A stretch of 64,000 nucleotides of DNA from an uncultured delta proteobacterium. GTDB taxonomy: Bacteria; Desulfobacterota; Syntrophorhabdia; Syntrophorhabdales; WCHB1-27. Under the pieces are notes generated by a model. That model was not told the DNA's origin and made no database searches. It saw nothing but the letters and a program-made list of their open reading frames with translations. Position 1 is the first letter of the stretch. Every line of letters begins with the position of its first letter. Below are positions 18,455-57,740 of the stretch, one piece after another. The stretch spans positions 140-64,139 of the forward strand of contig CAVVNC010000029.1 of assembly GCA_963749525.1 (NCBI GenBank). The letters run 5' to 3'. The position numbers were made by a program, and so were the translations under genes.

Positions 18455-18951
18455 TACTTCGGAGAATTTTTTTTAAACTCCTCTTGAAGGAGCACATCCG
18501 CTTTCGGATGGTGAGGGCGGGGAGTGATCTTTCTCCACCCGTGACGGGCGAGCATTCGATAGATTGTTGATTTTGGCACGGCGTGTTCCACGGCTTTTTC
18601 ATAGGCCCTTTTGACCTCACCTACCATGAGGATCTCCCCCCTGGCCGCCTTCTCGAGAAAGGACGAAAGAAAAGCATGTTCCTCATCCGCCGTCATATTC
18701 GCCCGATACCTGCCGCCACGCCTGGACGCCCGAAGCGCCTCTTCACCCTCCTTAAGATACTGGGCTTGGAGATGACGGACCGAGCTTGTATGCCAACCTA
18801 TGGCGACGGCGACGTCATGGGACGACAGCGCTAGAGACGCCCGTAGCCATAGACACTGCACCCTCTGGAATTGCGTCTTTGTTTTCACCTTCTTCAGCAA
18901 CTGCCCCAAAGACTCTTTGGAACCCGGTGGCAAGGGTGCGGGTCTTCTCAT
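18454..18951 (-). CDS. IS630-family transposase, N-terminal HTH part (orfA)
   Basis: Helix-turn-helix-like N-terminal domain. It ends ...LLQEEFKKNSPK* just after an A8 run (T8 on the + strand, 18467-18474). A -1 shift there reads on as ...KKFSEVVKEAAGDSTRIRIMFEDE into orfB. Confidence 0.75.
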   Translation of the reverse strand: MRRPAPLPPGSKESLGQLLKKVKTKTQFQRVQCLWLRASLALSSHDVAVAIGWHTSSVRHLQAQYLKEGEEALRASRRGGRYRANMTADEEHAFLSSFLEKAARGEILMVGEVKRAYEKAVEHAVPKSTIYRMLARHGWRKITPRPHHPKADVLLQEEFKKNSPK

Positions 18952-19021
18952 AGGACCTCCTGAAGGAGAAATAGACTTCAGGAGTCATTCTATCATTAGT
19001 GCTTAATAGATAGCAACTACG

Positions 19022-19892
19022 TATTACAGACCGATATCACGTAGAGCGGTACGAACGAAAAGGCGCCCATCATCGTCATGCCCACCACCAGATTCACTAG
19101 GTTTGCCGCCACGAACGGGGCTGACTCGAGCAGGGCAAGGTCGAGGATCGGCTGGACTGTCCGCCTTTCCTGCCGGAGAAAGAGGGCAGTGAGCGACAGG
19201 CTGACCGAGACGGCGAGCGCGGCAAGAAGGATCGAGCGGGTGGAGAGGCTCTCGCCTGCGAGATTGAGGCCGAACATGAGGAGGAGGAGCGACCCGCTCA
19301 GGAGCCCGACCCCGGCGAAATCGAAAGGGGCACGAGAGGAAGTCCTGGAGTCCTTCAGGAGGAAGCTGCCTGATGCCATCAAGAGAACGCCGATCGGTAC
19401 ATTGATGTAGAAGATGTAGCGCCAGGAATACTGGCTCACGATCCAGCCCCCCAGGTTTGGCCCCAGAACGGCGCCAATACTGAAAATGCTGGAAAACAGG
19501 CCGATGGCAGCCTCTCGGTTCTTGGGGAATTGATCGCTCACGATCCCCGACGCCGTGGGAATAAAGCAGGCGCCTCCGATGCCCTGAAGGAACCTGAAGG
19601 CTATGAGGGCATGGATAGTCGGCGCAAGGCCGCACGCGAGGGAACTGCCGGTGAAGAGCGCGAGAGAGGCGAGGAAGACCTTCTTGCGCCCGTAACTGTC
19701 ACCCAGATTTCCCGCCAGCGGTACGGTCATGGTGACGGCGATGAAAAAGATCGAGATGGTCCATGCAGACCAGAGTACATTCGAATGCAGCTCCCTCGTG
19801 AAGCTGGGGAATGCGACCGCTACCACCGTGGCGTCGATCGCATACATCAGAAGGCTCAGACTGGTGGTAACAAAAACGAGATAAGGGCGCAT
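19022..19892 (-). pseudogene. MFS transporter (DHA-type), N-terminal fragment
   Basis: MRPYLVFVTTSLSLLMYAIDATVVAVAFPS...GDSYGRKKVFL...FRFLQGIGGA are MFS motifs. The ORF runs into the IS and stops 3 codons inside it. Confidence 0.75.
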
Positions 19893-22742: not shown

Positions 22743-24920
22743 TCAGGTCTTCACGACCCGGCAGAGGAGCGCCGTGTGAGGCCAGCTGCCGATCTCAGGG
22801 CTGCAGAATTCGGGTCCGTCAGGACAGAGGAGATTGGCATTCGATTCGAACACGCTGAAGAGGCTCGGCTCGGCCTCTGACGTTTCCGGGAACCACCATC
22901 CATGGTCCGCGTCGGCCATGCGGGGATCGATTGTGTCGGAGATGTTGAGGCGCATGCGGGCGCTTCCCAGGGGGGTCTCCACCTTTACCCAGTCACCTTG
23001 GGCCAGGCTTAAGCCCCTGGCGGTCTCGGGGTGAAGAGTCACGAGCGGGTCGGGCCTCCTTTTTCTCGCTCCCTCGATCTGCCTCTGCTCCGAGTGGTAC
23101 ATCGGCATGAACCGGCTCCCTGTAATGAGAACGAGGGGAAAAGCCTCTGCCAGCTCTGGGTCGCCCGCGGGACTGTGCGCCATCTCGCGGTATACGGGAA
23201 GGGGCTCGCAGCCCAAAGCCTCGAACGTGGTCGACCGCAGCTCCACTTTGCCCGAAGGGGTGCCGAAGCCGTATTTCCTGTACCGTTCGAATTCAGGCTT
23301 CCCGAAGAGGCCGTTCCGTTCGAGGAGCCGATCGAACGTCAGGCCCACAGGCGCTAGTCTGTAGTCCCACACCTCGTCGACGGACTCCCATGGCCACTCA
23401 TCGGCCTGCCCGAGGCGGACGGCCAGACCGCGCCAGAAGTCATACGTGTTGCGACGCTCGTAAAGGGGCTCGATCCCCCTGGGGCAGGCCACGCAGAAGG
23501 AGCCCGTGAGCCAGAGCTCGGTCGTCTCTACGGTCGAGCAGATAGGAAAGACGTAATCCGCGAGGGCTGCCGAGGGAGTCAGATAGTATTCACCGACGGC
23601 ATAGATATCCAGGCTCTTCAGCGCCTCGTACGTGCGCCGCGCATTGGCGAGGGAGAGGAGCGGATTGCTCGCCACGGAAATGGCTGCGGAGACCGGATAG
23701 GGCTTGCCGGTGATCATGGCTTCGAAGACCGACCGCGCGTGGGCCGTGCACGTCATGTCGGCATTGGGCGGATGCATGTACTCGTGGGGCAGGCGGCGGT
23801 TTGCCTCCTCGTTCCTCGACCAGCCGGGGAAACCGAAAAAGGGATAGAGGTCCGCGCCCAGTTGTTTGGCGCGCTGCTGGCGCGATATGGCGTCGTTGCG
23901 CTGCATGTCCTCATCGGCCACGATCCTTCCGACGGGATCATTGCAGCCGAGCGTCTCCCCGCCGGGAATGTCCAGATTGCCCGTGAGGGCCTTCAGGCAG
24001 CTTCTCGCCCTCGCTGCCTGGGTGGCATTGACGCCCTGCTTGTCCAGGCCGAAGCCCCATGTGATGACCGCGGGCTTTGTCGCGCCGTAGCAGCGGGCCG
24101 AATCGACCACCGCTTGAGAAGTGAGCCACGTGATCTCCGCTACCCTCTCCGGCGTGTACGGAGCGGCCGCAGCCTTGAGATCCTCGAATCCCACGGTCCA
24201 GCTCGCCACGAAATCGCGGTCGTAGAGCCCTTCTTCGATGATGACCCGTATCCAGCCGAGCATAAGCGCCACGTCTGTGCCGGGCCTTATGGGCAGCCAC
24301 ATGTCGGCGTTTTCCGCCTCGGCAATGCGGCGAGGGTCGACGACGATGAGCTTTGCGCCGTTCTTTTTTGCCCGGAGGATCATGGGATAAAGGCCGATGG
24401 GGTCCGATTCCGAGGGACCGTGCCCCCAAAGGACGACACACTTGGTGTGCATCACGTCGCCCCACGTAAAGCCACCGTAAGTTGCGTATTCGACGGCCTG
24501 GCTTGGGCACATGCAGACGTTGTTTGCGCCGCACACGTTCGGCGACCCGAAAAGGTTGAAGAACCTGCGCTCGTCCCAATGATAGGTTCGTCTCGTGCCG
24601 TGGGTGAAGGCCAGGGTCTCCGCCCCGTGCTTCCCGCGAAGAGCTTCGAGCTTCTCCGCCACTTCGTCGAGGGCCTGGTCCCAGGTGAGGCGCTGCCATT
24701 TTCCGGAACCCCTTTCCCCCTGACGTTTCATGGGGTAATTGATCCTGTCCGGGTGATGAACGTGCTCGGCCATCAAAGCCCCTCGGGCGCAGATCCCACC
24801 CCTCGTTATGGGATGTTCCGGGTCCCCCTTGACCCTGACGATCCTGCCGTCTTCCACTTCGAGAAGGAGACCGCATTGGGGGTGGCACAAGCCGCAGTAG
24901 GATCGTCTCTTCTTAACCAT
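22743..24920 (-). CDS. cytoplasmic molybdopterin-dependent oxidoreductase (DMSO-reductase superfamily, substrate unknown)
   Basis: 725-aa intact ORF. The N-terminal 4Fe-4S motif is CGLCHPQCG...ICARG. There is no twin-arginine signal. A C-terminal MopB-CT-like region is present (GDWVKVETPLGSARMRL). Confidence 0.8.
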   Translation of the reverse strand: MVKKRRSYCGLCHPQCGLLLEVEDGRIVRVKGDPEHPITRGGICARGALMAEHVHHPDRINYPMKRQGERGSGKWQRLTWDQALDEVAEKLEALRGKHGAETLAFTHGTRRTYHWDERRFFNLFGSPNVCGANNVCMCPSQAVEYATYGGFTWGDVMHTKCVVLWGHGPSESDPIGLYPMILRAKKNGAKLIVVDPRRIAEAENADMWLPIRPGTDVALMLGWIRVIIEEGLYDRDFVASWTVGFEDLKAAAAPYTPERVAEITWLTSQAVVDSARCYGATKPAVITWGFGLDKQGVNATQAARARSCLKALTGNLDIPGGETLGCNDPVGRIVADEDMQRNDAISRQQRAKQLGADLYPFFGFPGWSRNEEANRRLPHEYMHPPNADMTCTAHARSVFEAMITGKPYPVSAAISVASNPLLSLANARRTYEALKSLDIYAVGEYYLTPSAALADYVFPICSTVETTELWLTGSFCVACPRGIEPLYERRNTYDFWRGLAVRLGQADEWPWESVDEVWDYRLAPVGLTFDRLLERNGLFGKPEFERYRKYGFGTPSGKVELRSTTFEALGCEPLPVYREMAHSPAGDPELAEAFPLVLITGSRFMPMYHSEQRQIEGARKRRPDPLVTLHPETARGLSLAQGDWVKVETPLGSARMRLNISDTIDPRMADADHGWWFPETSEAEPSLFSVFESNANLLCPDGPEFCSPEIGSWPHTALLCRVVKT

Positions 24921-25649: not shown

Positions 25650-27340
25650 TGGGGTTAGGATGTTGACGGGGAGTCATGTATTCTGAAATGGGAGGTCGCA
25701 TACGCGCCTCAATGGAAGAAAACGATGATCCCCCCGTCTACCGTGATCATACCTTACGCAGCCTTTTTTATCATCCTCCTTTTCGGCGGGCTGTACACTC
25801 CCGCGTAATCCCTGTCATCCCTCATAATCGCGTGGATGATGCACAAGAGTTTCCTTGATACGGCGACGAGCGCCCTCATCCGCACCATGCCTCTGCCGGT
25901 AAGCCTCTCGTAGTAGTCGTGCATGATACCGTTGTTCCTGACCATAAGCACAGCGGCATAGTAGAGGATCTTTCGCATAAGGCTCCGTCCCCTTTTGGAT
26001 ATCCTCCGCTGTCCTTTTCTCTTTCCCGAGCTCACTTCATAGAGATCGAGGCCGGCAAGCTTCATGATTTCCGACTGGGTCTTGAACTTTGAGAAATCCC
26101 CCACCTCACCAATCAAACCGGCAACAGAGACGACGCCCAACCCTTTTATTGAGAGAAGTCTCATACTGCATGGTATGCGTTCCAGCGTCAGCGCCATCTC
26201 CGCTTCAATCTCGGCGATGAAGCGGTCGATGGCATCGAGTTGAGCAATGATGTGCCTTATGTCCAGGGCGACTCCCGGCACTCCTTCTTTTATACCTACT
26301 GTTCCCCGTGCAAGATTAATCAAGAGTTCCGCATCCTTTATGCCGAGCTTACCCATGCTCCGCCTGCGCATCTCTTCGCCAAACTGTCCCTTATCGAGGG
26401 TCCTTATCGTATCCGGCGTCGTATACTTGTTCAAAATCAATCGAACAGTTTTGCCCCTCATTTTCTTGATGACCTGCTTGAACTCGGGGAAAATGATGAA
26501 GACGAGTTGCTGCATTTGATTAAGCAACGCTGTTCGCTCACACACGTGTCGCTCCCTCGCGTTGTTGAGCCTTCGGAGATAGGCGGCCTCACCTTCTGGA
26601 ATGACTATCGTTAACGCACGGCCAAGCCGTATGACGTCGGCGATCACCCGGGGATCCTTGTCGTCCGTCTTGCCCGGAGAATTGTCGTTCACCTCTTTCA
26701 GCCTCTTCGTATGCATCGGGTTCACCTGGACGATCTTTACTGGCTTATCCGTGAGGTAATGAACGAGAGGCTCGGCGTAGGGGCCGGTCGATTCGTAGCC
26801 GACGATCACCTCGTCACAGTGAAACCTGGTCTTGCTCGCCGCAATGAGGCTCCAGAACTTATCGAATCCTTCCCGCGTGTTGCCGAACTTGAAGACCTTT
26901 ATATCCCTGCCATCTATAGTAGTGCAATACCCTGTATTCATGGTCATACCGATGTCGACCGTCGCAATCAGCGTGCCTTCCTTCATCGTCCTTATTCTCT
27001 TCGCCCTCAGTCCTCTCATCGTAGGTCTCCTCCACTGGATTATCAGGAATAAATGAGCTGCAATGAAGGAGGATATCCTTACTCGTTCGGATGACTCAAC
27101 CATCAACTGCAATATAGCAAGCTGAAATTCTCATCTGAAGGTTGCATCTCGCAATACTCGCTTTCCCGCGGCAATCGTGGTATAATAGATGTGGTCCGCT
27201 GGTGACTATCACCAACCAACCTACGTCCAATCAATTCTGCGTATTTCTGAAAAGCCGCACCGAGGCTCGGGGTTGTCCGCTGGTAAACCCCCTAACAAAG
27301 GACCGAGTGCCGTTGTGGGCTTGCGAACGGCCACCTCGCA
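25650..27340 (-). mobile_element. IS110-family element (boundaries not determined)
   Basis: It contains the DEDD transposase gene plus about 0.3 kb of non-coding sequence 5' of it and about 0.1-0.3 kb 3' of it. IS110 elements lack clear terminal IRs, so the ends cannot be set from one copy. Confidence 0.45.
25754..27019 (-). CDS. IS110-family (DEDD) transposase/recombinase
   Basis: Start ATG 27019 lies 7 nt after GGAGGAG. IATVDIGMTMNTG, VGYESTGPY and DDKDPRVIAD form the DEDD RuvC-like N-domain. LLSIKGLGVVSVAGLIGEVGDFSKF...ISKRGRSLMRK is the Transposase_20 C-domain. Confidence 0.85.
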   Translation of the reverse strand: MRGLRAKRIRTMKEGTLIATVDIGMTMNTGYCTTIDGRDIKVFKFGNTREGFDKFWSLIAASKTRFHCDEVIVGYESTGPYAEPLVHYLTDKPVKIVQVNPMHTKRLKEVNDNSPGKTDDKDPRVIADVIRLGRALTIVIPEGEAAYLRRLNNARERHVCERTALLNQMQQLVFIIFPEFKQVIKKMRGKTVRLILNKYTTPDTIRTLDKGQFGEEMRRRSMGKLGIKDAELLINLARGTVGIKEGVPGVALDIRHIIAQLDAIDRFIAEIEAEMALTLERIPCSMRLLSIKGLGVVSVAGLIGEVGDFSKFKTQSEIMKLAGLDLYEVSSGKRKGQRRISKRGRSLMRKILYYAAVLMVRNNGIMHDYYERLTGRGMVRMRALVAVSRKLLCIIHAIMRDDRDYAGVYSPPKRRMIKKAA

Positions 27341-29670: not shown

Positions 29671-32600
29671 TCATTTCGGGGAACTTGAAATGCGCAGATA
29701 GGGTTCCAGTATTTTGTTCTTGTCTGCCTGCGTTCCGTCGTAGGCTATGGAGACGATGGGAATGGATAAATCTCTTTCCACCTTTTTATAGATTGCTTCA
29801 CTGATCAGCCCGGGGCAGCAGAAAAGAGGGTATACATGGACGATGAATTTCAAATCGGGGTAATTCTCATGCAGGTAGTAGACCTTGAGAAGATTTTCTG
29901 ATGTCTCCCCCCCGTGCCTGATGGATAAGCCATGGTGCTGCAGGTACGTCAAAGGATCACGATTGAGGGTGGACCCTTCGTCTTTTAGAAGGGGGCGGGC
30001 AATCCTGGTCAGCTTTCGGCCGAGTAGGCTGAGCGTACCGTAAAGGGCTTTGTCCCGAAGCAAACCCAAATAGCTGCCGTCAAGCCACTGGCTCTTGAAG
30101 TATGTCGTGATCAGAAGGCCCATCGTGTCGATAAAGGGTATGGTGACGGCTTCGGCGCCGGCCCGCTCCAGTCCCCGGATAAGGTCTTGATTGAAGATCT
30201 CGTTGTCGCGCACATATACGTCTCCCACGATCCCCACCTGGGGCAACCGGACGTCGGTCTTCTCGATGGCCTCAAGATCTTTTACAATCTCCTGAAAAAC
30301 CTCTTCCCTGGAGGTTCCTTTTCTGAAGGCCGCAAACAGGCTTCCCTCCGCTTTTTGGACCAGCCGGTCCGTTGCTCCGGCAGTCTTTTCCCGCGGCCTG
30401 ACCTGGCGCGTCATCTTCTGCAGCAGTCCTGAAAGCAGCCAGGCTCGGTAAAGGTCAACCAGGAGCTCCAAAGGCAAATCTGTGGGGAGATAGGGACTGA
30501 CCCTTACTTCCACCTGTTCCAGGCCATGCCCCATCTTTGTCAGGGTTTGCTTTAACATAACCGGATACTGGGGGAGGTTGCATGAAAGCCGGCTGTCCGC
30601 GTTGCAAAAGATGGCGACCTGCTCCGGACGGAGAGACAGGGTCTGTATCGTGCTGAGGATCCCCTGAGTGAGGATGCTGATCGGCAGACACTGTCCGTCA
30701 TTCAGTTGGATGCTGCGCGATATGGTCTCCGGGGTTTGCTCAATGAGCTCAGCCTTGATACCGGAGCGATTAAGTATTGCCTGCATCAGGCGTGAGTTGA
30801 GGTGATCGTAGTCTGACAGCAGGTAGGTTTTGTCGGCAAAGGACCTTTTGAGATCTATCCTCGGGCGGATTTTCTGCGTGGCCGCGCCCCGAAAATTGCG
30901 GAAGGTCTCGATGGCCGCTTCCAGGCGGGTATCATAGCCTTCGCCTGCCTCATGCTCATCCAGTTGCAGGATCAGGTAGGGTTTGCGGTAGTAATCCATG
31001 ATGTCTTTGAAATAGGAGAGGACGAAAGAATCGGGTGAGCATTTGAACGCGGTCAGGTAGATGGGGAACAGGCCTTTCGTTTTAGCCACGATTTCCGCAG
31101 TTTTTATGATCCTATTGCCATAGTGCCAGTGGTTGAGCCGGACAAAATCTCGCGCCGCATCGATCTCACGCTCATCAACAGGGATCATATCCATATAGAA
31201 CGATTGAACGCCTTTTTCGGCCAGGCGGTCAGGAATTCCCTTGTTCAGAGATTGATTCAGAATCAGGTACGGCCGTCCCATCAGGGCAACAGCGATATCA
31301 TTGGTCGCGCCGATCTGGTCCCGAAACAGTTCCTGTAAGTCCTTTTTGCGTTCCTGAAACCAGTCCCAGGCCAAGGAAAATGCTCTTTCAACCCGCTCAA
31401 ATGATACCTGTTCCTTCATCGCCTCAGGAAACTCCAGATAGATCAGCCGGATCATCTCGTCGAGGTTGCCGTTCACGGCCAGGACGGGGGCGATTACTTT
31501 TCCTGCAAGCGGAAGGGAGGGTATGTTGTGAACGACCGGGATCGCGTAGTGGGAATAGTAGCAGTAGCTTTTGGCTTCTTTCCCAGAGGCGTGTTCGAAG
31601 AGCTGGGGACAAAAGATAAAATCGACCTGCGGCGTCAAATTCCTGATATGGCCGTGGAATTCCACTAAGGGCGTGCAGTATTCTGCGCCGGTTATCTCCT
31701 TTCCCCGCGTCATGTGTTTGGGGTCGGCAGAGGTTACGACCGGCGTGAACCCCAGCCGCTTGAAAAACAGCTCCCACAGCGGTAGGTATTCGACCATGGT
31801 CAGGGTCGCCGGCAATCCGATCTTCAGGGTAGAATCCGCCCCCGGTTGGTGGCGGGGCGCAATTCCGGAGGAGAATAGCTCCCTTCGCAGCTCAAGCAGA
31901 TTGAAATGGATGTGATTCCGCAAGCGGGCCAGTGAAAAACCGGGACGCCTCGCTACCGAGAGAATTCCTCCATCCTTAAATTCCCGGAACGGGTTGCCCT
32001 CGCCCTCAAAGCTTGGCGCGCCGGCTGCGGCGGAAACATCAAACACCCTGCGATGGCTGCGCAACAGATCAAACCCAGAAGCGACTTTCTTCCGGTAACC
32101 CGAATCGTGCTCATCCCGGCCGCACAGGTACCCCCATCCCAGGGTCTCTCCGTCAAGGTCGATGCTTTTGATTTTGCAGTGATTCTTGCAGTACTCGCAG
32201 ACGTATTCGTCCACCACGACCTGTTCGGCGTGGAGGTCTTTTCTGAAACGGGACTCTCGGGCAAGGTCGGCATCGGCCATTTTGAGGCAGACGCCGAATG
32301 CGCCGGTGAGATGACAGAATTTTGAGACGGTGATGGGTTTCTGCAACTTCTGCTCAAATGCCTTCACCAGGGCGTAGTTCTTTGCAGTGGCCCCTTGGAA
32401 GGTAATCCGAGTGCCGATCTTGTTGACGTGGGCCACTTTGGAGAGATAGTTGTCCCTGACCGAATGGAGGGCTGCGGCAAGCAACTCCTCGCGGCTGTAC
32501 TGCAGGCTAAGGAGGTGATTCAAATCCCTCTCCATAAACACGGTGCACCGGTCACTGATCAGGGGGGCGGGAGCCCCTATCGCCAGGGCCGCATAGTCAT

Positions 32601-34008
32601 GCAGAGATACCCCGAGCCTCTTGGCCTGCTCTTCGATAAAGCTTCCCGTGCCTGCAGCGCACGCGTAATTCATGACCGAAAAAGTTACGCTGCCCTCCTT
32701 GAGCACGGTAAATTTTGCATCCTGCCCCCCGATTTCGATGATCGTGTCCGTCTCCGGGCCCAGATGATATGCCGCCCGGGCATGGGCAGTGATTTCATCG
32801 ACCGCATAGTCGGCCCGGACGACCTTTTGGATGAACTTGCGACCGGACCCGGTCGTTCCGGCGGCAAGAATCCTGAAGTGTACGGAAAAGCGTTGCTCCA
32901 GCCCGGCGATGGCCCTGGTCAGTTTCTGAACCGCTGAAATCGGCTGACCGCCGGTTCGGGCATAGAGTCCCACCAGGACCGCCTTCTCGCGATTCATGAG
33001 GGTTGCCTTGGTGCTGGTAGAGCCAATGTCGATTCCAAGATAGCACTCGATTTCCTCACCCAGGCTCAGAGGCTCATACACGTCGATTTCCACGTCATCG
33101 GTCACCGATGATTCCCAGGTGTCAAAATCGGGGACCTCCGATACCACGCTCGACAGGGGCGGATATCCGTAGGACCTGATGGCTGCCGTGGTTCTCTCGA
33201 GCAGCGCATGAACAGGGATCACTGCCGGTACTTCTCCCTCGTTCCGCTGTTTCAAAGCGATCAAGGCAGCGCCGATTGCCCCCATGTACTCGCCGTCGGT
33301 GAGTGCCTGCAGCGGGCGGCCCACTGCTTCCTGCAGGTACTGAAGAACCTTCCGGTTCTTACTGACACCACCAGCCACAACGACAGGATCTAATAATTCG
33401 ACGCCGTGAAACAGGGTATCGTAAATATTCTGGGCAACTCCGCGGGCCAGTCCGGCAGCGATTGCCGGCAGGCCATAGCCCTGCTGCTGCATATGGACCA
33501 GGTCCGTCCGGGCAAATACCGCGCAGCGGGTGGCTATCCGAGGTGGGTCTCCCTGATAGCCCTCGCCGATGCTGCTCAGCTCCTCGCTGCCGGAAAGCCC
33601 GAGGCGGGATGCCTGCTGATCCAGAAAAGAGCCCGTACCCGCCGCGCAGGCAGAGTTGGTTATGTATTTGTGGTAGCGGCCCTGCCGGTCGAAAAGGATC
33701 AGACCGAAGGTTTCTCCGCCGATGGTGATGATGGCTCCCGGGTTGGGGACGAAGTGCTTGACTCCGGCGATAAGGGCTACCTGTTCATTGACCTCGACTC
33801 CGGCCCGGAAGAATTCTCGCCCTTTCTCCGTGACGACCCCGAAAACACTCGGCCGTTGCGCGGGCAGTTTGCCGAGCATCGTCTGGAGTGTCGCATAGAT
33901 ATTGCCCCTATGGAAAGAGTAATCCCGGTAGGTAGGCTGCCCTGTGCTATCGAGCAGGACTATCGCAATGGAGACCGTGCCAATGTCAATACCCGCGACG
34001 TGGCCCAT
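29671..34008 (-). CDS. giant fusion protein: two BcrAD/BadFG/HgdC-type (ASKHA) activase ATPase domains + Cys motif + DUF2229/dehydratase-like C-terminal half
   Basis: 1,445-1,447 aa intact; the second ATG (34008) has better SD spacing. There are two activase modules (GIDIGTVS...NSACAAGTGSFLDQQ...RCAVFARTD and GIDIGSTSTKA...NYACAAGTGSFIEEQ...DRCTVFMERD), each with the two [4Fe-4S]-bridging Cys positions. These are followed by CEYCKNHC...C and about 800 aa of uncharacterised domains. Confidence 0.85.
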   Translation of the reverse strand: MGHVAGIDIGTVSIAIVLLDSTGQPTYRDYSFHRGNIYATLQTMLGKLPAQRPSVFGVVTEKGREFFRAGVEVNEQVALIAGVKHFVPNPGAIITIGGETFGLILFDRQGRYHKYITNSACAAGTGSFLDQQASRLGLSGSEELSSIGEGYQGDPPRIATRCAVFARTDLVHMQQQGYGLPAIAAGLARGVAQNIYDTLFHGVELLDPVVVAGGVSKNRKVLQYLQEAVGRPLQALTDGEYMGAIGAALIALKQRNEGEVPAVIPVHALLERTTAAIRSYGYPPLSSVVSEVPDFDTWESSVTDDVEIDVYEPLSLGEEIECYLGIDIGSTSTKATLMNREKAVLVGLYARTGGQPISAVQKLTRAIAGLEQRFSVHFRILAAGTTGSGRKFIQKVVRADYAVDEITAHARAAYHLGPETDTIIEIGGQDAKFTVLKEGSVTFSVMNYACAAGTGSFIEEQAKRLGVSLHDYAALAIGAPAPLISDRCTVFMERDLNHLLSLQYSREELLAAALHSVRDNYLSKVAHVNKIGTRITFQGATAKNYALVKAFEQKLQKPITVSKFCHLTGAFGVCLKMADADLARESRFRKDLHAEQVVVDEYVCEYCKNHCKIKSIDLDGETLGWGYLCGRDEHDSGYRKKVASGFDLLRSHRRVFDVSAAAGAPSFEGEGNPFREFKDGGILSVARRPGFSLARLRNHIHFNLLELRRELFSSGIAPRHQPGADSTLKIGLPATLTMVEYLPLWELFFKRLGFTPVVTSADPKHMTRGKEITGAEYCTPLVEFHGHIRNLTPQVDFIFCPQLFEHASGKEAKSYCYYSHYAIPVVHNIPSLPLAGKVIAPVLAVNGNLDEMIRLIYLEFPEAMKEQVSFERVERAFSLAWDWFQERKKDLQELFRDQIGATNDIAVALMGRPYLILNQSLNKGIPDRLAEKGVQSFYMDMIPVDEREIDAARDFVRLNHWHYGNRIIKTAEIVAKTKGLFPIYLTAFKCSPDSFVLSYFKDIMDYYRKPYLILQLDEHEAGEGYDTRLEAAIETFRNFRGAATQKIRPRIDLKRSFADKTYLLSDYDHLNSRLMQAILNRSGIKAELIEQTPETISRSIQLNDGQCLPISILTQGILSTIQTLSLRPEQVAIFCNADSRLSCNLPQYPVMLKQTLTKMGHGLEQVEVRVSPYLPTDLPLELLVDLYRAWLLSGLLQKMTRQVRPREKTAGATDRLVQKAEGSLFAAFRKGTSREEVFQEIVKDLEAIEKTDVRLPQVGIVGDVYVRDNEIFNQDLIRGLERAGAEAVTIPFIDTMGLLITTYFKSQWLDGSYLGLLRDKALYGTLSLLGRKLTRIARPLLKDEGSTLNRDPLTYLQHHGLSIRHGGETSENLLKVYYLHENYPDLKFIVHVYPLFCCPGLISEAIYKKVERDLSIPIVSIAYDGTQADKNKILEPYLRISSSPK

Positions 34009-34213
34009 GCGCATGCTCCTTACACCGCATTTGCCTGCTATTAGCCCGTATTCTCAGCGCTGAAAGGAGCAATGGGAGGCAAACAAGTCTGATGTTGCGT
34101 CTAATATAGACCAAAAAGGAGGTTTATACAAACGCGGTTATTATACCCGGGGGCGAGGCGTTACCCCCGTGCAGGAGCAAGTAGGCCCCTCAACAAAGAT
34201 GATGCTCCACGGT

Positions 34214-50391: not shown

Positions 50392-53300
50392 ATGGTTAGG
50401 ATTGGCCTTGACATAGGTTCTGTAAGCGTGAACCTCGCCGTGGTCGATGAAAAGGGAAGCGTAGTTGAAGACAGATACGTCCGCCACATGGGCAAGGCAA
50501 TGCACAAGGCGGCCGAGTTGCTTGAGGAGATGCAGACCGTCTATGGTCGCGAGATCGAATTCGTGGCCACTACCGGGACCGGCTCAAAGACATTCGCCCC
50601 TCTCGCGGGCGCCTCTTTTACGAACGAGATTATCGCCCTTACGAAGGCCTTCCACTACCTCTATCCCCGTGTGGGAAGCGTGATAGACATAGGGGGGGAA
50701 GACTCCAAGTTCATCATATTCGACAAAGACACCCGCAATGGGGCCTTAAGGATCAAAGACTTTTCCATGAACACCCTCTGCGCGGCAGGCACGGGCTCCT
50801 TCCTCGACCAGCAAGCATCGAGGCTCGGCTTCACCATCGAGGAGTTTGCGGAGGTTGCCCTGAAATCGAAGAACACACCGAGGATCGCAGGGCGGTGCAC
50901 GGTCTTCGCGAAATCGGATATGATCCACCTCCAGCAGATAGCGACGCCCGACTACGACCTCGTGGCAGGCCTCTGCTTTGCCCTTGCCCGTAATTTCAAG
51001 AGCAACATAGCCAAGGGTAAAGAGGTGAGAAAGCCCGTTGCCTTCATTGGCGGGGTGGCGCAAAACGCGGGTATGCTCAAGGCGATAAAGGGAGTCTTTC
51101 TCCTGGAAGACGACCAGCTCATCGTGCCCGAGCATTTCACCTCCATGGGCGCCCTCGGGGCGATCTACGCCGTCCTCGACGATCCCGCGTTGAAGCAGCA
51201 GTTCACGGGAGTGGAGAAGGTGAGGGAGCACCTGGCAAAGACGGAAGTCACGGAGTCCCACGAGCCCCTCGTCATATCGGAGAGGAACCTCAATATCGTC
51301 TACGAGGTGAAGAAGCCGAAAGAGAAGGTAAAGGCGTATCTCGGCGTCGACGTGGGCTCCATCAGCACGAATGTCGTGGCCATCGACGAGGATTGGAATG
51401 TCCTCTCCAAGCGGTACCTCATGACTGAAGGGCGGCCCCTGGAAGCGGTGAAACGCGGCCTCGACGAGGTGGGGGCGGAGATAGGCGATTTCGTCGAGAT
51501 CATGGGTGTGGGCACCACGGGCTCCGGCCGGTATCTCACGGCCGATTTCATCGGCGCGGACCTCGTGAGGAACGAGATCACGGCCCAGGCCGAGGCGGCA
51601 ATAGCCATAGACCCCGAGGTGGACACCGTCTTCGAGATCGGCGGGCAGGATTCGAAGTACATCAGCATCGACAACGGGGTGATCGTCGATTTCGAGATGA
51701 ACAAGGCCTGCGCCGCAGGCACTGGCTCTTTCCTCGAAGAGCAGGCGGAAAGACTGGGCGTCTCCATCAAGGAAGAGTTCTCGAAGCTCGCCCTCTCGGC
51801 GAAGGGCCCCACGAGGATGGGGGAGAGGTGCACGGTATTCATAGAGTCGGACGTGATGCACTGCCAGCAGGGAGGTGCCCACACGGACGATATCGTTGCG
51901 GGCCTCTGCTATTCCATAGTGCTCAACTACCTCAATAAGGTGGTGGGAGATAGAAGGGTGGGAAAGAAGATCTTCTTTCAGGGCGGGACCGCCTTCAACA
52001 AAGGGGTGGTTGCAGCCTTCGAGAAGGTGTGCGGCAAGCCCATCACCGTGCCCTCCCATCATGATGTGACGGGCGCCATCGGTGTTGCCATACTCGCCAT
52101 GAAGGAGAAAGACTGGGAGAAGAGCACCTTCAAGGGCTTCGACCTGAGTAAGAGGCCCTACGCGATCGATACCTTCGAGTGCAAGGGATGTGAGAACCTG
52201 TGCGAGATCAGGAGGGTCACGTGCGAGGGTGAGAAGCCCCTCTACTACGGGAGCCGGTGCGAGAAGTACGACGTGGTGAGGCACGTGAAGACAGTGGAGA
52301 AGACAGACCTCTTCAAGATCAGGGAAGAGCTGCTCCACAACATGTACGACCGCAATGTCGACGGCGAGAAGATCGGCATACCGAAAATCCTCAACATGCA
52401 CGAGCTGCTGCCTTTCTGGCGCAGTTTCCTGACGGAGCTTGGCTTTTCCGTCGTCCTTTCCGATTCCACGAACAAGAAGGTGATCAAGGACGGCGTGGAG
52501 AATATCATCGTCGAATCCTGCTTTCCCATCAAGCTTGCCCACGGCCACATACTGAACATCGTGGGCAAGGGGATCAACAGGGTCTTCATGCCGAGCGTCA
52601 TAGACATGAAGAAGCCTTCCGAGAGCGTGGCGGGCAGCTTCGCCTGCCCGTATGCCCAGTCGCTCCCCTATACGGCGAAGGCCTCCATCGACTTCGAGGA
52701 GCTGGGGGTCAAGATGGAGTCGCCCATCGTCTACTTCGGTCAGGGAAGGAAGAAGACCCTCTCCAACCTCGTCGCCTTCGGGAAGAGGCTCGGGAAGTCG
52801 AGGAAAGAAGTCGAGCACGCCTACAACATCGCGAGCGATATCCAGGACCGTTTCGCCCGCAGGTGCCTTGACGAGGGGATGAGGTTTCTCGCGGACATTA
52901 AGCCGAACGAGAAGGTGATGGTCCTCGTGGGGAGGCCGTACAACAGCATGGACTCCGGCGCCAACCTGAACGTGCACAAGAAGCTCCTCGACCTCGGCGT
53001 CGCGTCCATCCCGATAGACATGCTCCCCCTCGACAAGGTCGAGGCCGACGAAGACCTGAAAGACATGTACTGGGGGTACGGCCAGAAAATCCTGAGGGCG
53101 GCAAAGATCGTCAAGTCCCATCCCAACCTCTACGCGGTCTATGTCACGAACTTCGGGTGCGGTCCCGATTCGTTCATCACCCATTTCTTCAAGAAGATCA
53201 TGGACGGAAAGCCCTTCCTCCAGCTGGAGATCGACGAGCACAGCGGAGACGCAGGGCTCATCACCCGCCTGGAGGCCTTTCTCGACAGCATCAAGAACGC

Positions 53301-54558
53301 GAAGGTCGAGACAAAGACGGAAAAGAGGCAGGTATCCCCGTTCATGACCGACGGACGGGCCCGGAAGGTCTACATACCCTACATGTCCGACCACTCCATA
53401 CCCTTCGTGGGCGCGTTCAAGGCATGCGGCGTCGATGCCGCGGTGATGGAGGAATCGGACGAGGAGACGGTGCAGATCGGACGGAAGCACACGCTGGGAA
53501 AGGAATGCTATCCCTGCATCCTCACCACGGGCGACATGCTGAAGACGAGCAAGCGGGCCGATTTCGACCCGGAGCGGAGCGCCTTTTTCATGCCTTCCGG
53601 CTCCGGACCGTGCCGGTTCGGCCAGTACCACCGCTTCCACCGAATGGTGCTCTCCGAGCACGGCTTCGACAATGTCCCTATCTATGCCCCCAATCAGGAC
53701 GATAAGCTTTACAATGAATTGAATATTCTCGGCGGCAGGTTCATGAGGCTGGGGTGGAGGGCCATCGTGGCAACCGACCTTCTCATCAAGATGCTTCACG
53801 AGACGCGTCCGTACGAGAAGAACCCGGGGGACACGGACAGGGTTTATAAGGAGCATCTCTTCAGCATCAAGGCAGCCATAGAGAAAGGCGGGGACGAGGT
53901 TTTCGGGGCCCTCGAGAATGCGGTACAGGCGTTTCTCGCCATCCCGAGGACGGGCAAGCAGAAGCCGGTTGTGGGCATCGTGGGGGAGATCTACATCCGC
54001 TCCAACAGGTTCGGCAACAACCAACTGGTGAGAAGAGTCGAAGAGTTCGGCGGAGAGGCCTGGCTCGCGCCCGTCACCGAGTGGGTGACCTACGTCAACT
54101 ACATGGGCAAGAAGAAGAGCATGAACAATGCAGGCATGAACAAGGCAAGTCTCTCCAGTCTCTTCAGCATCGTGCTCTCCGATTACATACAGAGGAAGGA
54201 AGAGCACCGCATGGAGAAGATCTTCGAGCATTACCTGAGGCATGGGGAAGAGCCGGCCATCAGGCAGGTGCTCAACCAGGCCATGCCCTACATAGACGAG
54301 AGCTTCGAAGGGGAAGCCATACTGAGCGTGGGAAAGAGCATCGATTTCATCCACAAGGGGGCCTCCGGCATCATCAATGCCATGCCTTTCACCTGCATGC
54401 CGGGCACCATCTCGAGCGCCATCATGAAGCTCATCCAGAGCAAGTACGACGTGCCCGTTTTCAACGTGGCCTACGACGGTCAGGGAGAGACGAACATCAC
54501 GACGCGGCTGGAAGCCTTCATGCACCAGGTGAAGGAGTATCACCGGAACAGCGAATAG
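50392..54558 (+). CDS. giant fusion protein, paralog of 29671..34008: two activase-type ASKHA ATPase domains + Cys motif + DUF2229/dehydratase-like half
   Basis: 1,388 aa intact, RBS GGAGGA. GLDIGSVS...NTLCAAGTGSFLDQQ...GRCTVFAKSD, then GVDVGSISTN...NKACAAGTGSFLEEQ...ERCTVFIESD, then CKGCENLCEIRRVTCEG...C. Confidence 0.85.
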   Translation: MVRIGLDIGSVSVNLAVVDEKGSVVEDRYVRHMGKAMHKAAELLEEMQTVYGREIEFVATTGTGSKTFAPLAGASFTNEIIALTKAFHYLYPRVGSVIDIGGEDSKFIIFDKDTRNGALRIKDFSMNTLCAAGTGSFLDQQASRLGFTIEEFAEVALKSKNTPRIAGRCTVFAKSDMIHLQQIATPDYDLVAGLCFALARNFKSNIAKGKEVRKPVAFIGGVAQNAGMLKAIKGVFLLEDDQLIVPEHFTSMGALGAIYAVLDDPALKQQFTGVEKVREHLAKTEVTESHEPLVISERNLNIVYEVKKPKEKVKAYLGVDVGSISTNVVAIDEDWNVLSKRYLMTEGRPLEAVKRGLDEVGAEIGDFVEIMGVGTTGSGRYLTADFIGADLVRNEITAQAEAAIAIDPEVDTVFEIGGQDSKYISIDNGVIVDFEMNKACAAGTGSFLEEQAERLGVSIKEEFSKLALSAKGPTRMGERCTVFIESDVMHCQQGGAHTDDIVAGLCYSIVLNYLNKVVGDRRVGKKIFFQGGTAFNKGVVAAFEKVCGKPITVPSHHDVTGAIGVAILAMKEKDWEKSTFKGFDLSKRPYAIDTFECKGCENLCEIRRVTCEGEKPLYYGSRCEKYDVVRHVKTVEKTDLFKIREELLHNMYDRNVDGEKIGIPKILNMHELLPFWRSFLTELGFSVVLSDSTNKKVIKDGVENIIVESCFPIKLAHGHILNIVGKGINRVFMPSVIDMKKPSESVAGSFACPYAQSLPYTAKASIDFEELGVKMESPIVYFGQGRKKTLSNLVAFGKRLGKSRKEVEHAYNIASDIQDRFARRCLDEGMRFLADIKPNEKVMVLVGRPYNSMDSGANLNVHKKLLDLGVASIPIDMLPLDKVEADEDLKDMYWGYGQKILRAAKIVKSHPNLYAVYVTNFGCGPDSFITHFFKKIMDGKPFLQLEIDEHSGDAGLITRLEAFLDSIKNAKVETKTEKRQVSPFMTDGRARKVYIPYMSDHSIPFVGAFKACGVDAAVMEESDEETVQIGRKHTLGKECYPCILTTGDMLKTSKRADFDPERSAFFMPSGSGPCRFGQYHRFHRMVLSEHGFDNVPIYAPNQDDKLYNELNILGGRFMRLGWRAIVATDLLIKMLHETRPYEKNPGDTDRVYKEHLFSIKAAIEKGGDEVFGALENAVQAFLAIPRTGKQKPVVGIVGEIYIRSNRFGNNQLVRRVEEFGGEAWLAPVTEWVTYVNYMGKKKSMNNAGMNKASLSSLFSIVLSDYIQRKEEHRMEKIFEHYLRHGEEPAIRQVLNQAMPYIDESFEGEAILSVGKSIDFIHKGASGIINAMPFTCMPGTISSAIMKLIQSKYDVPVFNVAYDGQGETNITTRLEAFMHQVKEYHRNSE

Positions 54559-54574
54559 GGGGCCAAAACCCCAG

Positions 54575-54739
54575 CCACAAAACCGAGCGAAGCGAGGCTT
54601 AAGCGGGCAGGCCGGGGCACCCCGAAGCGGGTCGTGAGCCTTGCCTGTGGAGGGGGTGCTGAACCAGGACAAAACGAGCGTAAGCGAGACTGAGCGGGGA
54701 GGCTCCGCAGCTTTGCCTGTGGAGGGGGTGCTGAACCCC
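54575..54739 (-). repeat. two tandem inverted copies of repeat module Y
   Basis: Reverse complement: ggggttcagcaccccctccacaggcaaagctgcggagcctccccgctcagtctcgcttacgctcg, then tggttcagcaccccctccacaggcaag...gcctcgcttcgctcg. The second copy carries an insertion of about 30 nt. Confidence 0.65.
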
Positions 54740-54783
54740 AACGACTGTCCTTAGCCTCTGAGCTTCCTGCTGCGAGAAGATAG

Positions 54784-56109
54784 ATGAATATCCTCTGGGC
54801 GATCATCGTCATCATTCTTCTTATCATCATCAACGGCATCTTCTCGGCCGGCGAGTTTGCCATCGTCTCCTCCCGCAAGAGCAAGATCAAGGAGATGATC
54901 AAGGAAGGTGGCGGGAAGGAGAAGCAGGCCCGTAAGCTCCTCGAGATGCGGGAGCAGCCGGAGAACTTCCTTTCCCTTATCCAGATAGGCATCACCATCG
55001 TCGGCACTCTTGCCTCGGCCATAGGCGGGGTCATCTCCGTTACCTACGTGGCGCCCCTCATAAGGCAGATCCCTTATGCGGGTCCGGTTTCCGAGACTGT
55101 AGCCCTCATCCTCGTGGTCATCGTCCTCACCTACTTCATCATGGTCGCAGGGGAGCTTGTGCCGAAATACATCGGGATACACTACCGGGAGAGGGCGGCC
55201 CTCCAGCTGGTGCCTGTTTTCACTTTTCTCTCGAAGATACTCTTCTTCCTCGTGTGGGTCCTCAACCGATCGACCTCCTCCATTATGCGCATCCTGAAGC
55301 TGAAGAAGACGGATGAGGTGATCGGCGAGGAGGAGATCAAGGTGCTCCTCGAAGAGGGAAGGCTTCAAGGAGTCTTCGACCGGACGGAGGAGGAGCTGAT
55401 CCACAGCGTCTTCGAGTTCGTGGACCGGTCGGTCAAGGAGATCATGGTGCCCCGGCCGAACATCTACGCCCTCGACATGGAGAAGCCCCAGGAAGAGACC
55501 GTGCGCTTCATCGTGGAGAACGAGTTTTCCCGCTATCCGGCATACAGGGACCACCTCGACAGGATCCTCGGCATCGTCTATCAGAAGGACGTGATGAGGA
55601 CCATATGGCTCGAAAAGCCGCTGGAGCTGGAGAAAATACTGAAGAGGGCCTATTTTGTCCCGGATACCATGAAGATCAGCGTCCTGTTCAAGGACATGCA
55701 GAAGAGGCGGGTGCACCTCGCCATCGTGGTCGATGAGTACGGGACCACGGCAGGAATCGTGACCCTGGAAGACATCATGGAGGAGATCTTCGGCGAGATC
55801 ATGGATGAGACGGACGTGGACATCCAGATAGAGAGGAACAAGGACGGCTCTATCATGGTGGACGGCTCCTACTCCATCCGGGACCTGAACAACTCCCTCA
55901 ACATGAACCTCCCCGAATCGCCCGACTACGAGACGCTCGGGGGCTTTATCCTCTCGGAGATCCAGGGCATTGCGCGGGGCGGGGAGATAGTGACGTACAA
56001 CGACTACAAGCTCACCGTGGTCGGCATCCACGGCAGAAGGATCGCCAAGGTGAAGATAGAGAAGACGAGCAGGAAAAGGGGTGAAGGTGATGTCAGATCC
56101 GGTCCTTGA
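54784..56109 (+). CDS. CNNM/HlyC-CorC family transporter (DUF21 + CBS pair + CorC_HlyC)
   Basis: 441 aa. The N-terminal TM DUF21 is followed by a CBS pair (VKEIMVPRPNIYALD...) and the C-terminal YKLTVVGIHGRRIAKVKI. Confidence 0.85.
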   Translation: MNILWAIIVIILLIIINGIFSAGEFAIVSSRKSKIKEMIKEGGGKEKQARKLLEMREQPENFLSLIQIGITIVGTLASAIGGVISVTYVAPLIRQIPYAGPVSETVALILVVIVLTYFIMVAGELVPKYIGIHYRERAALQLVPVFTFLSKILFFLVWVLNRSTSSIMRILKLKKTDEVIGEEEIKVLLEEGRLQGVFDRTEEELIHSVFEFVDRSVKEIMVPRPNIYALDMEKPQEETVRFIVENEFSRYPAYRDHLDRILGIVYQKDVMRTIWLEKPLELEKILKRAYFVPDTMKISVLFKDMQKRRVHLAIVVDEYGTTAGIVTLEDIMEEIFGEIMDETDVDIQIERNKDGSIMVDGSYSIRDLNNSLNMNLPESPDYETLGGFILSEIQGIARGGEIVTYNDYKLTVVGIHGRRIAKVKIEKTSRKRGEGDVRSGP

Positions 56110-56683
56110 AGTTTTTTCCGACTATGGCTGACCGTGGTGCTATTTCAGTACGGAGCGTACTGATCGGCTGAAAAAGGCGCGCGGAATCGAAATCCAATGG
56201 CTCGCCTTCCCCCTCCATCCGGAGATCCCCGAAGAGGGTCTGACGCTGGATGAGTTTTTTGCCGGCCGCCGGATGGATATCCGGGCTGCCCAGGAGCGCC
56301 TCGAAAAGGTAGCGGCTTCGCTATCTCTGCCTCTCGCCCCCCGCACCAGGATCTACAACACCCGCCTGGCCCAGGAGCTGGCCAAATGGGCAGAATCCCA
56401 AGGAAAGGGGGATGATTTCCATCATGCGGCTTTCAGGGCCTATTTCGCGGAAGGAAGGAACATCGGCGTGATTGAGGAATTGGCGGCCCTGGCCGCGTCG
56501 ACGGGGCTTCCGGCGGACGAGGCCCTGCAAGTGATCCGGCAAAGGAGCTTCCGGCAGGCGGTAGATGCCGATTGGGCCCGAGCCCACGGCTTGGGGATTT
56601 CGGCGGTCCCTACTTTCCTATTCGACCATCGAAGAATGGTCGGCTTTCAACCTTACGAGGCCTTGGTGCAGCTCACCGAGTGA
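56090..56683 (+). CDS. DsbA/FrnE-like thiol:disulfide oxidoreductase with in-frame UGA (probable selenocysteine) in the redox motif U-P-W-C
   Basis: ATG 56090 ... EVFSDYG-TGA(56129-56131)-PWCYFSTERTDRLKK...WLAFPLHPEIPEEG is in the same frame as track ORF 56273..56683, and the TGA is the only stop in between. The TGA occupies the position of the first Cys of the DsbA-family CPWC motif. A hairpin lies 13 nt downstream. Confidence 0.75.
56145..56163 (+). promoter_or_regulatory. candidate bacterial SECIS hairpin
   Basis: tCAGTACG-gag-CGTACTGa: a 7-8 bp perfect stem with a G-containing 3-nt loop, starting 13 nt after the UGA. Confidence 0.5.
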
Positions 56684-56690
56684 GTCCGCG

Positions 56691-56816
56691 TCACGGGCCT
56701 TCTTCGAAGACGCCCATGGCCCTGAATTGCAGCGTCACGGGCCTTCTTCGAAGACGCCCATGGCCCTGAATTGCAGCGTCACGGGCCTTCTTCGAAGACG
56801 CCCATGGCCCTGAATT
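56691..56816. repeat. 44-bp tandem repeat x2.9 that reiterates the accA 3' end including its stop codon
   Basis: tcacgggccttcttcgaagacgcccatggccctgaattgcagcg occurs at 56691-56734 and 56735-56778 (identical). The first 38 bp recur at 56779-56816, which is the real accA end (reverse complement encodes FRAMGVFEEGP*). Confidence 0.85.
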
Positions 56817-57740
56817 TCCGGTATCTCTTCTCCTTCAGCTCCTCCACGGAAAGTTCGAGCAGCTCCCCGAGGTGTCTCTCCAGGGCCCTGCCCACGTTCC
56901 GGAATGTCTCCTCGTGGTCCCTGTGGGCTCCGCCGAAAGGCTCGACTATGATCTCGTCGATGACGCCGAGCCGGTAGAGGTCCTGGGCCGTCGGTTTCAA
57001 TATGTCCGCGGTGTGGGCAGCCCTCGAGCTGTCCTCTTTCATGACGCCGATATAGCCCTCAGGGGAGATGACGGAATAGATCGAATGCTCCAGCATCCCT
57101 ATCCTGTCGCCCACGCCTATGGCGAGGGCGCCTCCGGACATGCCCTCTCCGATCACCGTGACGATCACGGGCATAGACAGGGCGAACATATACTCTATGT
57201 TCGATGCTATGGCTTCTGCCTGGCCGCGCTCTTCCGCGCCGATGCCGGGAAAGGCGCCCGGTGTGTCGATGAAGCAGAAGAGGGGAAGGCGCCACCTGTC
57301 GGCCAGTTCCATGATCCTCCGGGCCTTCCTGTACCCTTCCGGGTTGACCATGCCGAAGTTCCTTTGCGCCATCTCCCGGAGGCCGTTCCCTTTCTGGTGG
57401 CCGACGATGGCCACGCCACGGCCGTTGAACCTGGCGAAGCCGGTCACGATGGCGGGATCGTCGTTGAACCTCCGGTCTCCGTGGAGCTCAACGAAATCGG
57501 TGCAAAGGTGGCCGACGTAGTCCAGCGTATGGGGCCTATTCACATGACGGGAGAGCTGGAGCCGCTGCCAGTTGCTCATGGTCCCGTAGATCTCCCTTTC
57601 CGCCTTTCGGACCTTATGATGGAGGCCTTCAAGCTCCGAGGCATAGCGGGGATCTTCCACGTCGTGAAACTTCCGTATTTCTTCAATCCTGCGCTCGAGG
57701 GGCTCGAGCTTCCTCTCGAAGTCGAGATAGTATCGTTTCA

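Follow-up and report, generated by a model that had tools for sequence, protein, structure and literature searches.

We found that a 64,000-nucleotide stretch of contig CAVVNC010000029.1 from an uncultured delta proteobacterium (the window) contains a gene that very likely encodes a selenoprotein. The gene, at 56090-56683 on the plus strand, would specify a 197-residue cytoplasmic thiol-disulfide oxidoreductase of the FrnE type (DsbA fold; PF01323 and COG2761, the latter being the FrnE group). Its attacking residue would be selenocysteine (Sec), inserted at the UGA at 56129-56131. We observed directly the structure of the gene, the family of its product, the column occupied by Sec or Cys, the conservation of the TGA, and the conservation and covariation of a downstream hairpin with the features of a bacterial selenocysteine insertion sequence (SECIS). 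Judged from these sequence comparisons, the TGA is almost certainly a Sec codon at a FrnE-type active site. Insertion of Sec in the source organism, the substrate, and the physiological role are predictions that we take up below.

The reading frame is intact on both sides of the TGA. Read from the ATG at 56090, it runs MSDPVLEVFSDYG, then the TGA at 56129-56131, then PWCYFSTERTDRL, and it continues to a terminal TGA at 56681-56683. The internal TGA is the only other stop in frame. The gene of 197 codons, including Sec14, is supported over its full length by matches to PF01323 and to FrnE and by the alignment of orthologues, which in 80 genomes begins at residues 1-6 of the window protein (tblastn). 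A Shine-Dalgarno-like AGGGG, recognized by reading the sequence, lies 8 nt before the ATG (56077-56081, plus strand) and may serve in ribosome binding; the sequence of this region, GCAGGAAAAGGGGTGA, is conserved in three relatives (L081, L082, and L083). The ORF (open reading frame) called by the software, 56273-56683 (136 aa), corresponds to residue 62 onward, and the first in-frame start after the internal TGA is 48 codons downstream. An earlier reading, made from the nucleotide sequence without database searches (the sequence-only reading), had placed the start, the TGA, and the called ORF at these same coordinates, and each of them was borne out.

We found that the conserved domain begins upstream of the TGA and extends across it. 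When the TGA was translated as Cys, PF01323 (DSBA) matched residues 6-194 (profile positions 2-188 of 191; E=1.3e-29; 103.8 bits against a cut-off of 25.6). The called ORF, which opens at residue 62, is therefore a partial DsbA-fold protein, as had been proposed.

The TGA occupies the column of the first Cys of the CxxC redox motif. In a phmmer search of proteins of solved structure (PDB), the best match was Deinococcus radiodurans FrnE (5CNW/5CP1, E=2.9e-21); SCO1869 (1.5e-12) and DsbA (1.9e-06) were weaker. The FrnE sequence SDIACPWCY (5CNW) aligns residue for residue with SDYG-U-PWCY of the window protein. Three Cys homologues (P0052, P0075, and P0103) read FSDYICPWCYF at this position. These alignments agree with the sequence-only reading, which had put the TGA at the first Cys of the motif. 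They also show that full-length forms start 13-15 codons before the Sec column and not at the equivalent of Met 56273. Thus, the TGA (56129-56131, plus strand) would encode U14, the attacking residue of a U-P-W-C motif. By translation, the TGC at 56138-56140 (plus strand) encodes Cys17, the resolving Cys of UxxC and the sole Cys of the window protein.

The FrnE subfamily (cd03024) is defined by the active-site motif C-P-(W/F)-C (PMC8945050). By sequence, the window protein appears to belong to this subfamily: it carries the motif, with Sec at the first Cys, and its closest relative in sequence and structure is FrnE, ahead of periplasmic DsbA, HCCA isomerase, and GST-kappa.

Structural modeling gave a consistent picture. 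We modeled the fold with AlphaFold using the Cys homologue P0103, which is 53% identical to the window protein (pLDDT, the predicted local distance difference test score, was 92.4). In the model, strand 1 comprises residues 5-11, the Cys/Sec column is residue 15, and helix 1 begins at residue 16. The modeled Cys/Sec column is thus at the N-terminus of helix 1, in classical thioredoxin-fold active-site geometry. In a Foldseek search with this model, the five best PDB matches were all FrnE entries (5CO3/5CNW), with template modeling (TM) scores of 0.79-0.85; periplasmic DsbA matched at a TM score of ~0.6. Pro174 (56609-56611, plus strand), in an A-V-P-T loop, was invariant in the homologue alignment and V173 was nearly so. 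Given the thioredoxin/DsbA fold and a strand at residues 176-179 of the P0103 model, Pro174 is probably the cis-Pro of the active site.

We predict that the protein is cytoplasmic because it lacks an N-terminal extension that could serve as a signal peptide: only about five residues (MSDPV) precede strand 1. This assessment is based on N-terminal length and on the position of strand 1, at residue 5 of the P0103 model, and not on a dedicated predictor. We considered whether the protein could be a periplasmic DsbA oxidase of the DsbA/DsbB system. This identity was ruled out by the missing extension and by the gene neighbors, which are a CNNM-type membrane protein gene and accA, with no DsbB/VKOR. 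A C-terminal CxxxxC tail was not found in the window protein, which ends ...QPYEALVQLTE and in which Cys17 is the only Cys. An external reductant would therefore have to recycle the enzyme.

We found that the TGA is conserved in all of the best orthologous loci in which it could be read. A protein search over 5.8 billion proteins yielded 1086 homologues, and the best 120 were classified. A nucleotide scan in which each species was represented by a single genome (the GTDB representative) yielded 572 relatives, of which the 80 best loci were retained. The Sec column was TGA in 79/79 readable loci, each from a different bacterial species; the 80th orthologous locus is cut by a contig end, leaving this column unreadable. 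In all 79, the TGA is flanked in frame by F-[SFT]-D-[YTF]-x and P-[WF]-C-Y. Most of the loci are from Thermodesulfobacteriota or from metagenome-assembled genomes labeled "delta proteobacterium". Others are from Geobacter argillaceus ATCC BAA-1139, Syntrophus, Syntrophorhabdus, Acidobacteriota, Thermoanaerobaculia, Abyssobacteria, and Dissulfurispiraceae. The closest relatives, L081, L082, and L083 (89-97% amino acid identity), retain the ATG, the TGA, the hairpin, and the upstream CNNM gene.

One of these relatives carries an irregularity of its own. L082 (JGI Ga0187885_10091507, ~703-1256; 97% identical) changes frame ~70 codons past the TGA, and the database protein P0017 was called in the other frame of this locus. 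The contig is short and of low coverage, and an indel error is the probable cause.

The TGA might instead be a true stop. In that case the locus would be either a pseudogene or two units: a leader of 13 codons and, translated from the internal start at 56273, a separate DsbA-fold fragment that lacks the active site. Gene callers treat the family in this way: 107 of the best 120 homologues (of 1086) cover 89% of the query or less, being truncated at the N-terminus. The Sec machinery was also not seen in the window. Nevertheless, 79/79 species would not share an identical nonsense mutation and at the same time keep the 13 codons before it in frame and conserved as FSDY, and a product starting 48 codons past the TGA would lack strand 1, the CxxC, and helix 1. 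In addition, the apparent starts of the homologues are GTG or ATG codons inside the region of the hairpin loop that shift between species; the 14 truncated homologues whose sequences were retrieved begin a few codons past the TGA column ("VRTDRLKK...", "MRTDRLKK..."). A stop codon would also leave unexplained the hairpin covariation and the synonymous constraint described below. We consider a pseudogene or real stop very unlikely and, for practical purposes, excluded. The sequence-only reading had warned that this locus would be mis-annotated as a fragment without its active site, and such mis-annotation is indeed the rule among the database homologues.

A second alternative is that the TGA is read as a standard amino acid, either as Trp or Gly under a reassigned code (tables 4/25) or as Cys or Trp by near-cognate read-through. 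In E. coli, termination at UGA is weak when the next base is C, and TGAC is present in 80/80 aligned sequences, although the Pro codon dictates that C. The best 120 homologues include 10 full-length sequences that carry W at the Sec column ("FSDYVWPWCYF"; P0009, P0028, P0034, P0040, P0045, P0046, P0077, P0090, P0092, and P0095) and 3 full-length sequences that carry Cys. However, the DNA of one W form (L205, positions 178-801) reads GTC TGA CCT TGG TGC. The W forms therefore reflect a TGA mistranslated by a code-4-type gene call on bacteria that use the standard code. Of 62 long ORFs in the window, 25 terminate with TGA, among them the selenoprotein gene and the upstream CNNM gene, so the code here is standard and not TGA-reassigned. 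Furthermore, a CxxC site would lose its redox function with Trp or Gly as the attacking residue, and the homologous column holds Cys. Simple read-through would also have no need of a conserved, covarying hairpin whose loop G is invariant and placed at SECIS distance. We regard decoding as a standard amino acid as highly improbable.

The TGA could also be a sequencing or assembly error for TGC or TGT. Nothing specific favors this, but a 44-nt repeat, triplicated at 100% identity just downstream of the gene, leaves some room for doubt about the local assembly quality. The same TGA and a matching hairpin are present in the independent assemblies of L081, L082, and L083 and in 79 other species, so the chance of an error is negligible.

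We found that a hairpin with the properties of a bacterial SECIS follows the TGA. The hairpin, TCAGTACG-GAG-CGTACTGA (56145-56163, plus strand), begins exactly 13 nt after the TGA and consists of a 5' arm (56145-56151), a loop, GGAGC (56152-56156), and a 3' arm (56157-56163). It can be drawn as 8 perfect pairs, the eighth being G56152-C56156, or as 7 bp with the 5-nt loop. The spacing from UGA to loop is 20 nt, and the calculated energy is -8.8 kcal/mol alone and -9.6 kcal/mol in context. The sequence-only reading had described such a structure: a perfect 7-8 bp stem 13 nt past the TGA with a G in its loop.

These properties fit the published model of the bacterial SECIS. The model calls for an upper stem of 4-16 bp, a loop of 3-9 nt with a G in its first two positions, 16-37 nt from UGA to loop, and a minimum free energy (MFE) at or below -7.5 kcal/mol (PMC13188914). 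The corresponding values in the window are 7-8 bp, 3-5 nt beginning GG, 20 nt, and -8.8/-9.6 kcal/mol. The second nucleotide of the 5-nt apical loop, G56153 (plus strand), is the guanosine demanded by the model. It is column 25 of a gap-free alignment of 48 nt, from the TGA on, in 80 sequences, and it is invariant even though the residue it helps encode varies among Gly, Val, and Glu. In the same alignment, T10 and G11 of the Cys17 codon are invariant and its third position is C or T (TGY) in 80/80 sequences.

The stem is conserved as a structure. In the helix columns (17-23 with 29-35), 94.9% of the cells were standard pairs (75 distinct sequences), compared with 17-50% when the partners were slid by 1 to 3 columns as a control. 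Double changes were seen in four of the seven pairs: 15 sequences had G-C in place of A-U, 9 had C-G in place of U-A, and 1 had U-A in place of C-G. The observed covariation score was reached by 0/500 shuffles. RNAalifold, run without a prior structure, recovered the same helix minus the central pair (6/7 pairs). Some of the paired changes joined a nonsynonymous change to a synonymous partner: in one, AGT (Ser) became GGT (Gly) as ACT became ACC, and in another, ATT (Ile) became GTT (Val) as ATT became ATC. Being conserved, covarying, and in accord with the published model, the hairpin is well described as a bacterial SECIS, the function that the sequence-only reading had assigned to it.

We also found that synonymous sites in the stem are fixed in the Sec forms. 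Arg codon 10 was CGT in 75/76, Phe codon 6 was TTC in 67/67, and Ser codon 7 was AGT in 35/36. As a control we used 118 Cys-form loci obtained by scanning metagenomes for the pattern FSDYxCPWCY. In these, Arg at the same codon was CGT in only 3/97. Pairable stem positions averaged 3.55/7 in the Cys forms versus 6.65/7 in the Sec forms. The four closest Cys forms (AFPLHP motif) encode almost the same peptide as the Sec forms, F-S/M-T-x-R-I-E/D, but their codons leave only 3-4/7 pairs.

Several observations weigh against a Sec codon served by this hairpin. Approximately one-third of family members have a U-U mismatch at the central stem pair, and the mean energy of the bare 7-bp stem over the family is only -6.5 kcal/mol. 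At the third loop position the window has A, a minor deviation from the model, which mostly has G or U there. The predicted fold of 56129-56190 was no better than that of shuffled sequences (z=-0.98), and when 72 nt are folded together, competition from a non-conserved structure brings the pair probability of the hairpin down to ~0.38. The Cys controls were mostly more distant and more GC-rich, with only four close Cys-form DNAs among them, so part of the codon contrast between Sec and Cys forms could be compositional. Finally, selA, selB, selD, and tRNA-Sec were not found in the 64-kb window (0 tRNAs by ARAGORN; Pfam scans of ~50 ORFs). Because of the z score and the competing fold, the case for the hairpin is comparative and not thermodynamic. 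Likewise, local MFE failed to separate Sec forms (-6.4 kcal/mol) from Cys forms (-7.3 kcal/mol).

Based on these results we suggest how the gene would be decoded. By the established bacterial mechanism, the hairpin at 56145-56163 in the coding mRNA would act as the SECIS, and its apical loop, with G56153, would be bound by SelB-GTP-Sec-tRNA(Sec). A ribosome arriving at the UGA, 13 nt upstream of the hairpin, would then insert Sec and not terminate. The source organism is probably competent to do so, since an intact gene and SECIS have been retained and since Thermodesulfobacteriota are among the most selenoprotein-rich bacteria (PMC13188914). In this sense the gene marks its organism as a likely Sec user.

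We further suggest, from FrnE biochemistry and selenol chemistry, how the enzyme would act. The U14-P-W-C17 center, at the N-terminus of helix 1, would cycle between a selenol/thiol and a selenenylsulfide. The selenol would be the attacking nucleophile and the selenenylsulfide with Cys17 the oxidized state. Such a center should be more nucleophilic than the Cys form and have a lower pKa. The enzyme would reduce or isomerize disulfides of cytoplasmic substrates; recycling by the thioredoxin system or by a low-molecular-weight thiol is a guess. Homology to FrnE predicts a cytoplasmic disulfide reductase or isomerase, and the presence of Sec in a cytoplasmic FrnE-type protein likewise points to a reductase or isomerase role rather than that of an oxidase.

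The gene is of a kind already known. A "DsbA-like protein" (COG2761, UXXC, 9 sequences) was reported as a new selenoprotein family in the Sargasso Sea by Zhang, Fomenko, and Gladyshev in 2005 (PMC1088965). DsbA-like selenoproteins were then reported in the genomes of Anaeromyxobacter dehalogenans, Desulfovibrio desulfuricans, and Desulfotomaculum reducens by Zhang et al. in 2006 (PMC1794560), and a 2026 review has an entry for "DsbA-like protein form 1, PF01323, UxxC" (PMC13188914). The sequence-only reading had stated, correctly, that Sec-containing DsbA-like proteins appear in such surveys, including those of deltaproteobacteria. The family shares with the window gene the same Pfam and COG assignments, UxxC with Sec first, Cys homologues, a hairpin after the UGA with a small G-containing loop, and the same anaerobic deltaproteobacteria-type hosts; there is no mechanistic difference. 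In every sequence-level respect that defines the family, the window gene is a member. The window subfamily (FSDYxUPWCYF...AFPLHPE[TIV]P...AQELAKWAE) is either the same orthologous group as the published exemplars (AACY01178397 and NIP15863.1) or a sister group within COG2761.

The closest protein of solved structure is D. radiodurans FrnE (DR_0659; PDB 5CNW, 5CO3, and 5CP1; cd03024), a disulfide reductase/isomerase of the DsbA family that is located in the cytoplasm. It shares with the window protein the xPWC site, the lack of a signal peptide, and a stand-alone gene. In contrast, the window protein has Sec in place of Cys22, lacks the CxxxxC tail, is 197 residues long compared with a 260-residue PDB chain, and is ~30% identical. 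The CxxxxC tail recycles the D. radiodurans enzyme; many but not all members of the subfamily have it, and it is also absent from S. roseofulvus FrnE and the D. maricopensis homologue (PMC8945050), so its absence is not disqualifying for the FrnE subfamily. FrnE reduces insulin, has isomerase activity, and reduces DTNB [5,5'-dithiobis-(2-nitrobenzoic acid)] in a reaction dependent on thioredoxin reductase; the mutant is sensitive to cadmium and diamide (PMC8945050).

The window protein and its hairpin can also be compared with better-known systems. Periplasmic DsbA of the E. coli type shares the thioredoxin fold with a helical insertion (PF01323), a CxxC-type center, and a cis-Pro loop. Unlike that protein, a CPHC oxidase recycled by DsbB, the window protein has an xPWC site, no signal peptide, and no DsbB neighbor. 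The SelB-SECIS systems of E. coli fdhF and Moorella likewise use a hairpin within the coding sequence, immediately 3' of the UGA, with a small loop containing a G; the 20-nt spacing in the window is within the 16-37 nt range. The window hairpin differs from the fdhF SECIS in being unrelated in sequence, in belonging to no Rfam family, and in having A at the third loop position, and many family members differ further in the central U-U mismatch. No Rfam family matched the window at gathering thresholds, and a search of 56050-56300 at E values up to 10 gave only a chance match to a small nucleolar RNA. No curated bacterial SECIS model in Rfam covers the hairpin at 56145-56163.

It is conceivable, though in our view unlikely, that the subfamily is a functionally distinct branch of COG2761 that surveys have not separated, or that an overlap with the CNNM gene reflects a role in metal stress. 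The first idea comes from a subfamily that almost exclusively encodes Sec across several anaerobic phyla, has one family-wide SECIS, and lacks the FrnE recycling tail. The second comes from the overlap with a gene for CorC/CNNM-type divalent-cation efflux, together with D. radiodurans FrnE being cadmium-inducible and protective against cadmium (PMC8945050). What supports these ideas is limited to synteny in three close relatives.

The main value of these results is for annotation. The locus should be recorded as one 197-residue selenoprotein, with a transl_except for Sec at 56129-56131, rather than as a fragment of 136 aa that lacks the active site. No model in NCBIfam is dedicated to the family; the sole match there scored 24.5 bits against a 190-bit cut-off and was to an unrelated seleno-lipoprotein family. 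The lack of a model probably accounts for the persistent truncation of NCBI records. No mechanistic novelty is involved, and the current understanding of Sec insertion and of these enzymes is unchanged. The family does offer a clean natural pair of Sec and Cys forms, with a compact conserved SECIS, in which to study what selenium gains a FrnE-type redox center.

The selenoprotein gene overlaps the gene upstream of it. That gene (54784-56109, plus strand) encodes a CNNM/CBS/CorC_HlyC (CorC-type) membrane protein, identified by Pfam matches, and its stop, TGA 56107-56109, gives an overlap of 20 nt with the start of the selenoprotein gene. The sequence-only reading had inferred coupled expression from this overlap. 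The overlap itself is confirmed, but the arrangement is present only in the three closest relatives (L081, L082, and L083) and absent from the other 79 loci, so coupling would not be a property of the whole family. The two genes are probably co-transcribed, in the lineage of the window only. A scan of 54500-56900 for promoters and terminators found nothing above chance, including between the two genes. Across the family, there was no conserved neighborhood in the 76-77 flanking genes per side. The gene neighborhood gives no clue to the substrate, because no Pfam family recurs more than 4 times.

Directly after the selenoprotein stop is the tandem repeat mentioned above, 2.9 copies of a 44-nt unit at 100% identity (56688-56816). 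The unit is made up of the 3'-terminal part of accA, a convergent gene on the minus strand with its stop at 56779-56781, and a few further bases. In L081 the unit occurs once and the spacer differs. The triplication is either a very recent tandem event or an assembly artefact.

Several other genes in the window are interrupted. A molybdopterin oxidoreductase resembling pyrogallol hydroxytransferase (AhtL-like) is split at 2697-5221 (plus strand) into an ORF at 2697-4625 (Molybdopterin) and an ORF at 4622-5221 in another frame (Molydop_binding), which overlap at ATGA. We considered the in-frame TGA at 4623-4625 as a Sec codon and rejected it: it lies in the ATGA overlap with the differently framed Molydop_binding ORF, and the in-frame continuation has no Pfam match. 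The large subunit may be genuinely split, or the break may come from a frameshift or from a sequencing error. A second molybdopterin oxidoreductase (725 aa, 22743-24920) does not contain Sec, since its reading frame is uninterrupted; it adjoins an IS110-family transposase gene (DEDD_Tnp_IS110 and Transposase_20; 25754-27112, minus strand). No other credible candidate for an in-frame TGA in a second selenoprotein was found in the window.

A major facilitator superfamily (MFS) transporter gene is in two pieces at 17390-19892 (minus strand), an N-terminal part at 19017-19892 and a C-terminal part at 17390-17878. Between them are transposase ORFs matching HTH_33/HTH_29 (18454-18951) and DDE_3 (17897-18454), and the gene looks to have been hit by an IS630-type insertion sequence. 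In a cluster for a branched-chain amino acid ATP-binding cassette (ABC) transporter (12785-14256, plus strand), the second ATPase is fragmented into ORFs at 13545-13874 and 13846-14256 in different frames. The latter ORF has only the C-terminal part of ABC_tran, and a frameshift in the second ATPase is possible.

Two very large proteins, of 1447 and 1388 aa, are encoded at 29671-34014 (minus strand) and 50392-54558 (plus strand). Both combine a BcrAD_BadFG ATPase with DUF2229 ("CoA enzyme activase"). Together with the AhtL-like molybdenum enzyme and with BKACE and acyl-CoA genes, they suggest an anaerobic lifestyle in which aromatic or acyl-CoA compounds are degraded.

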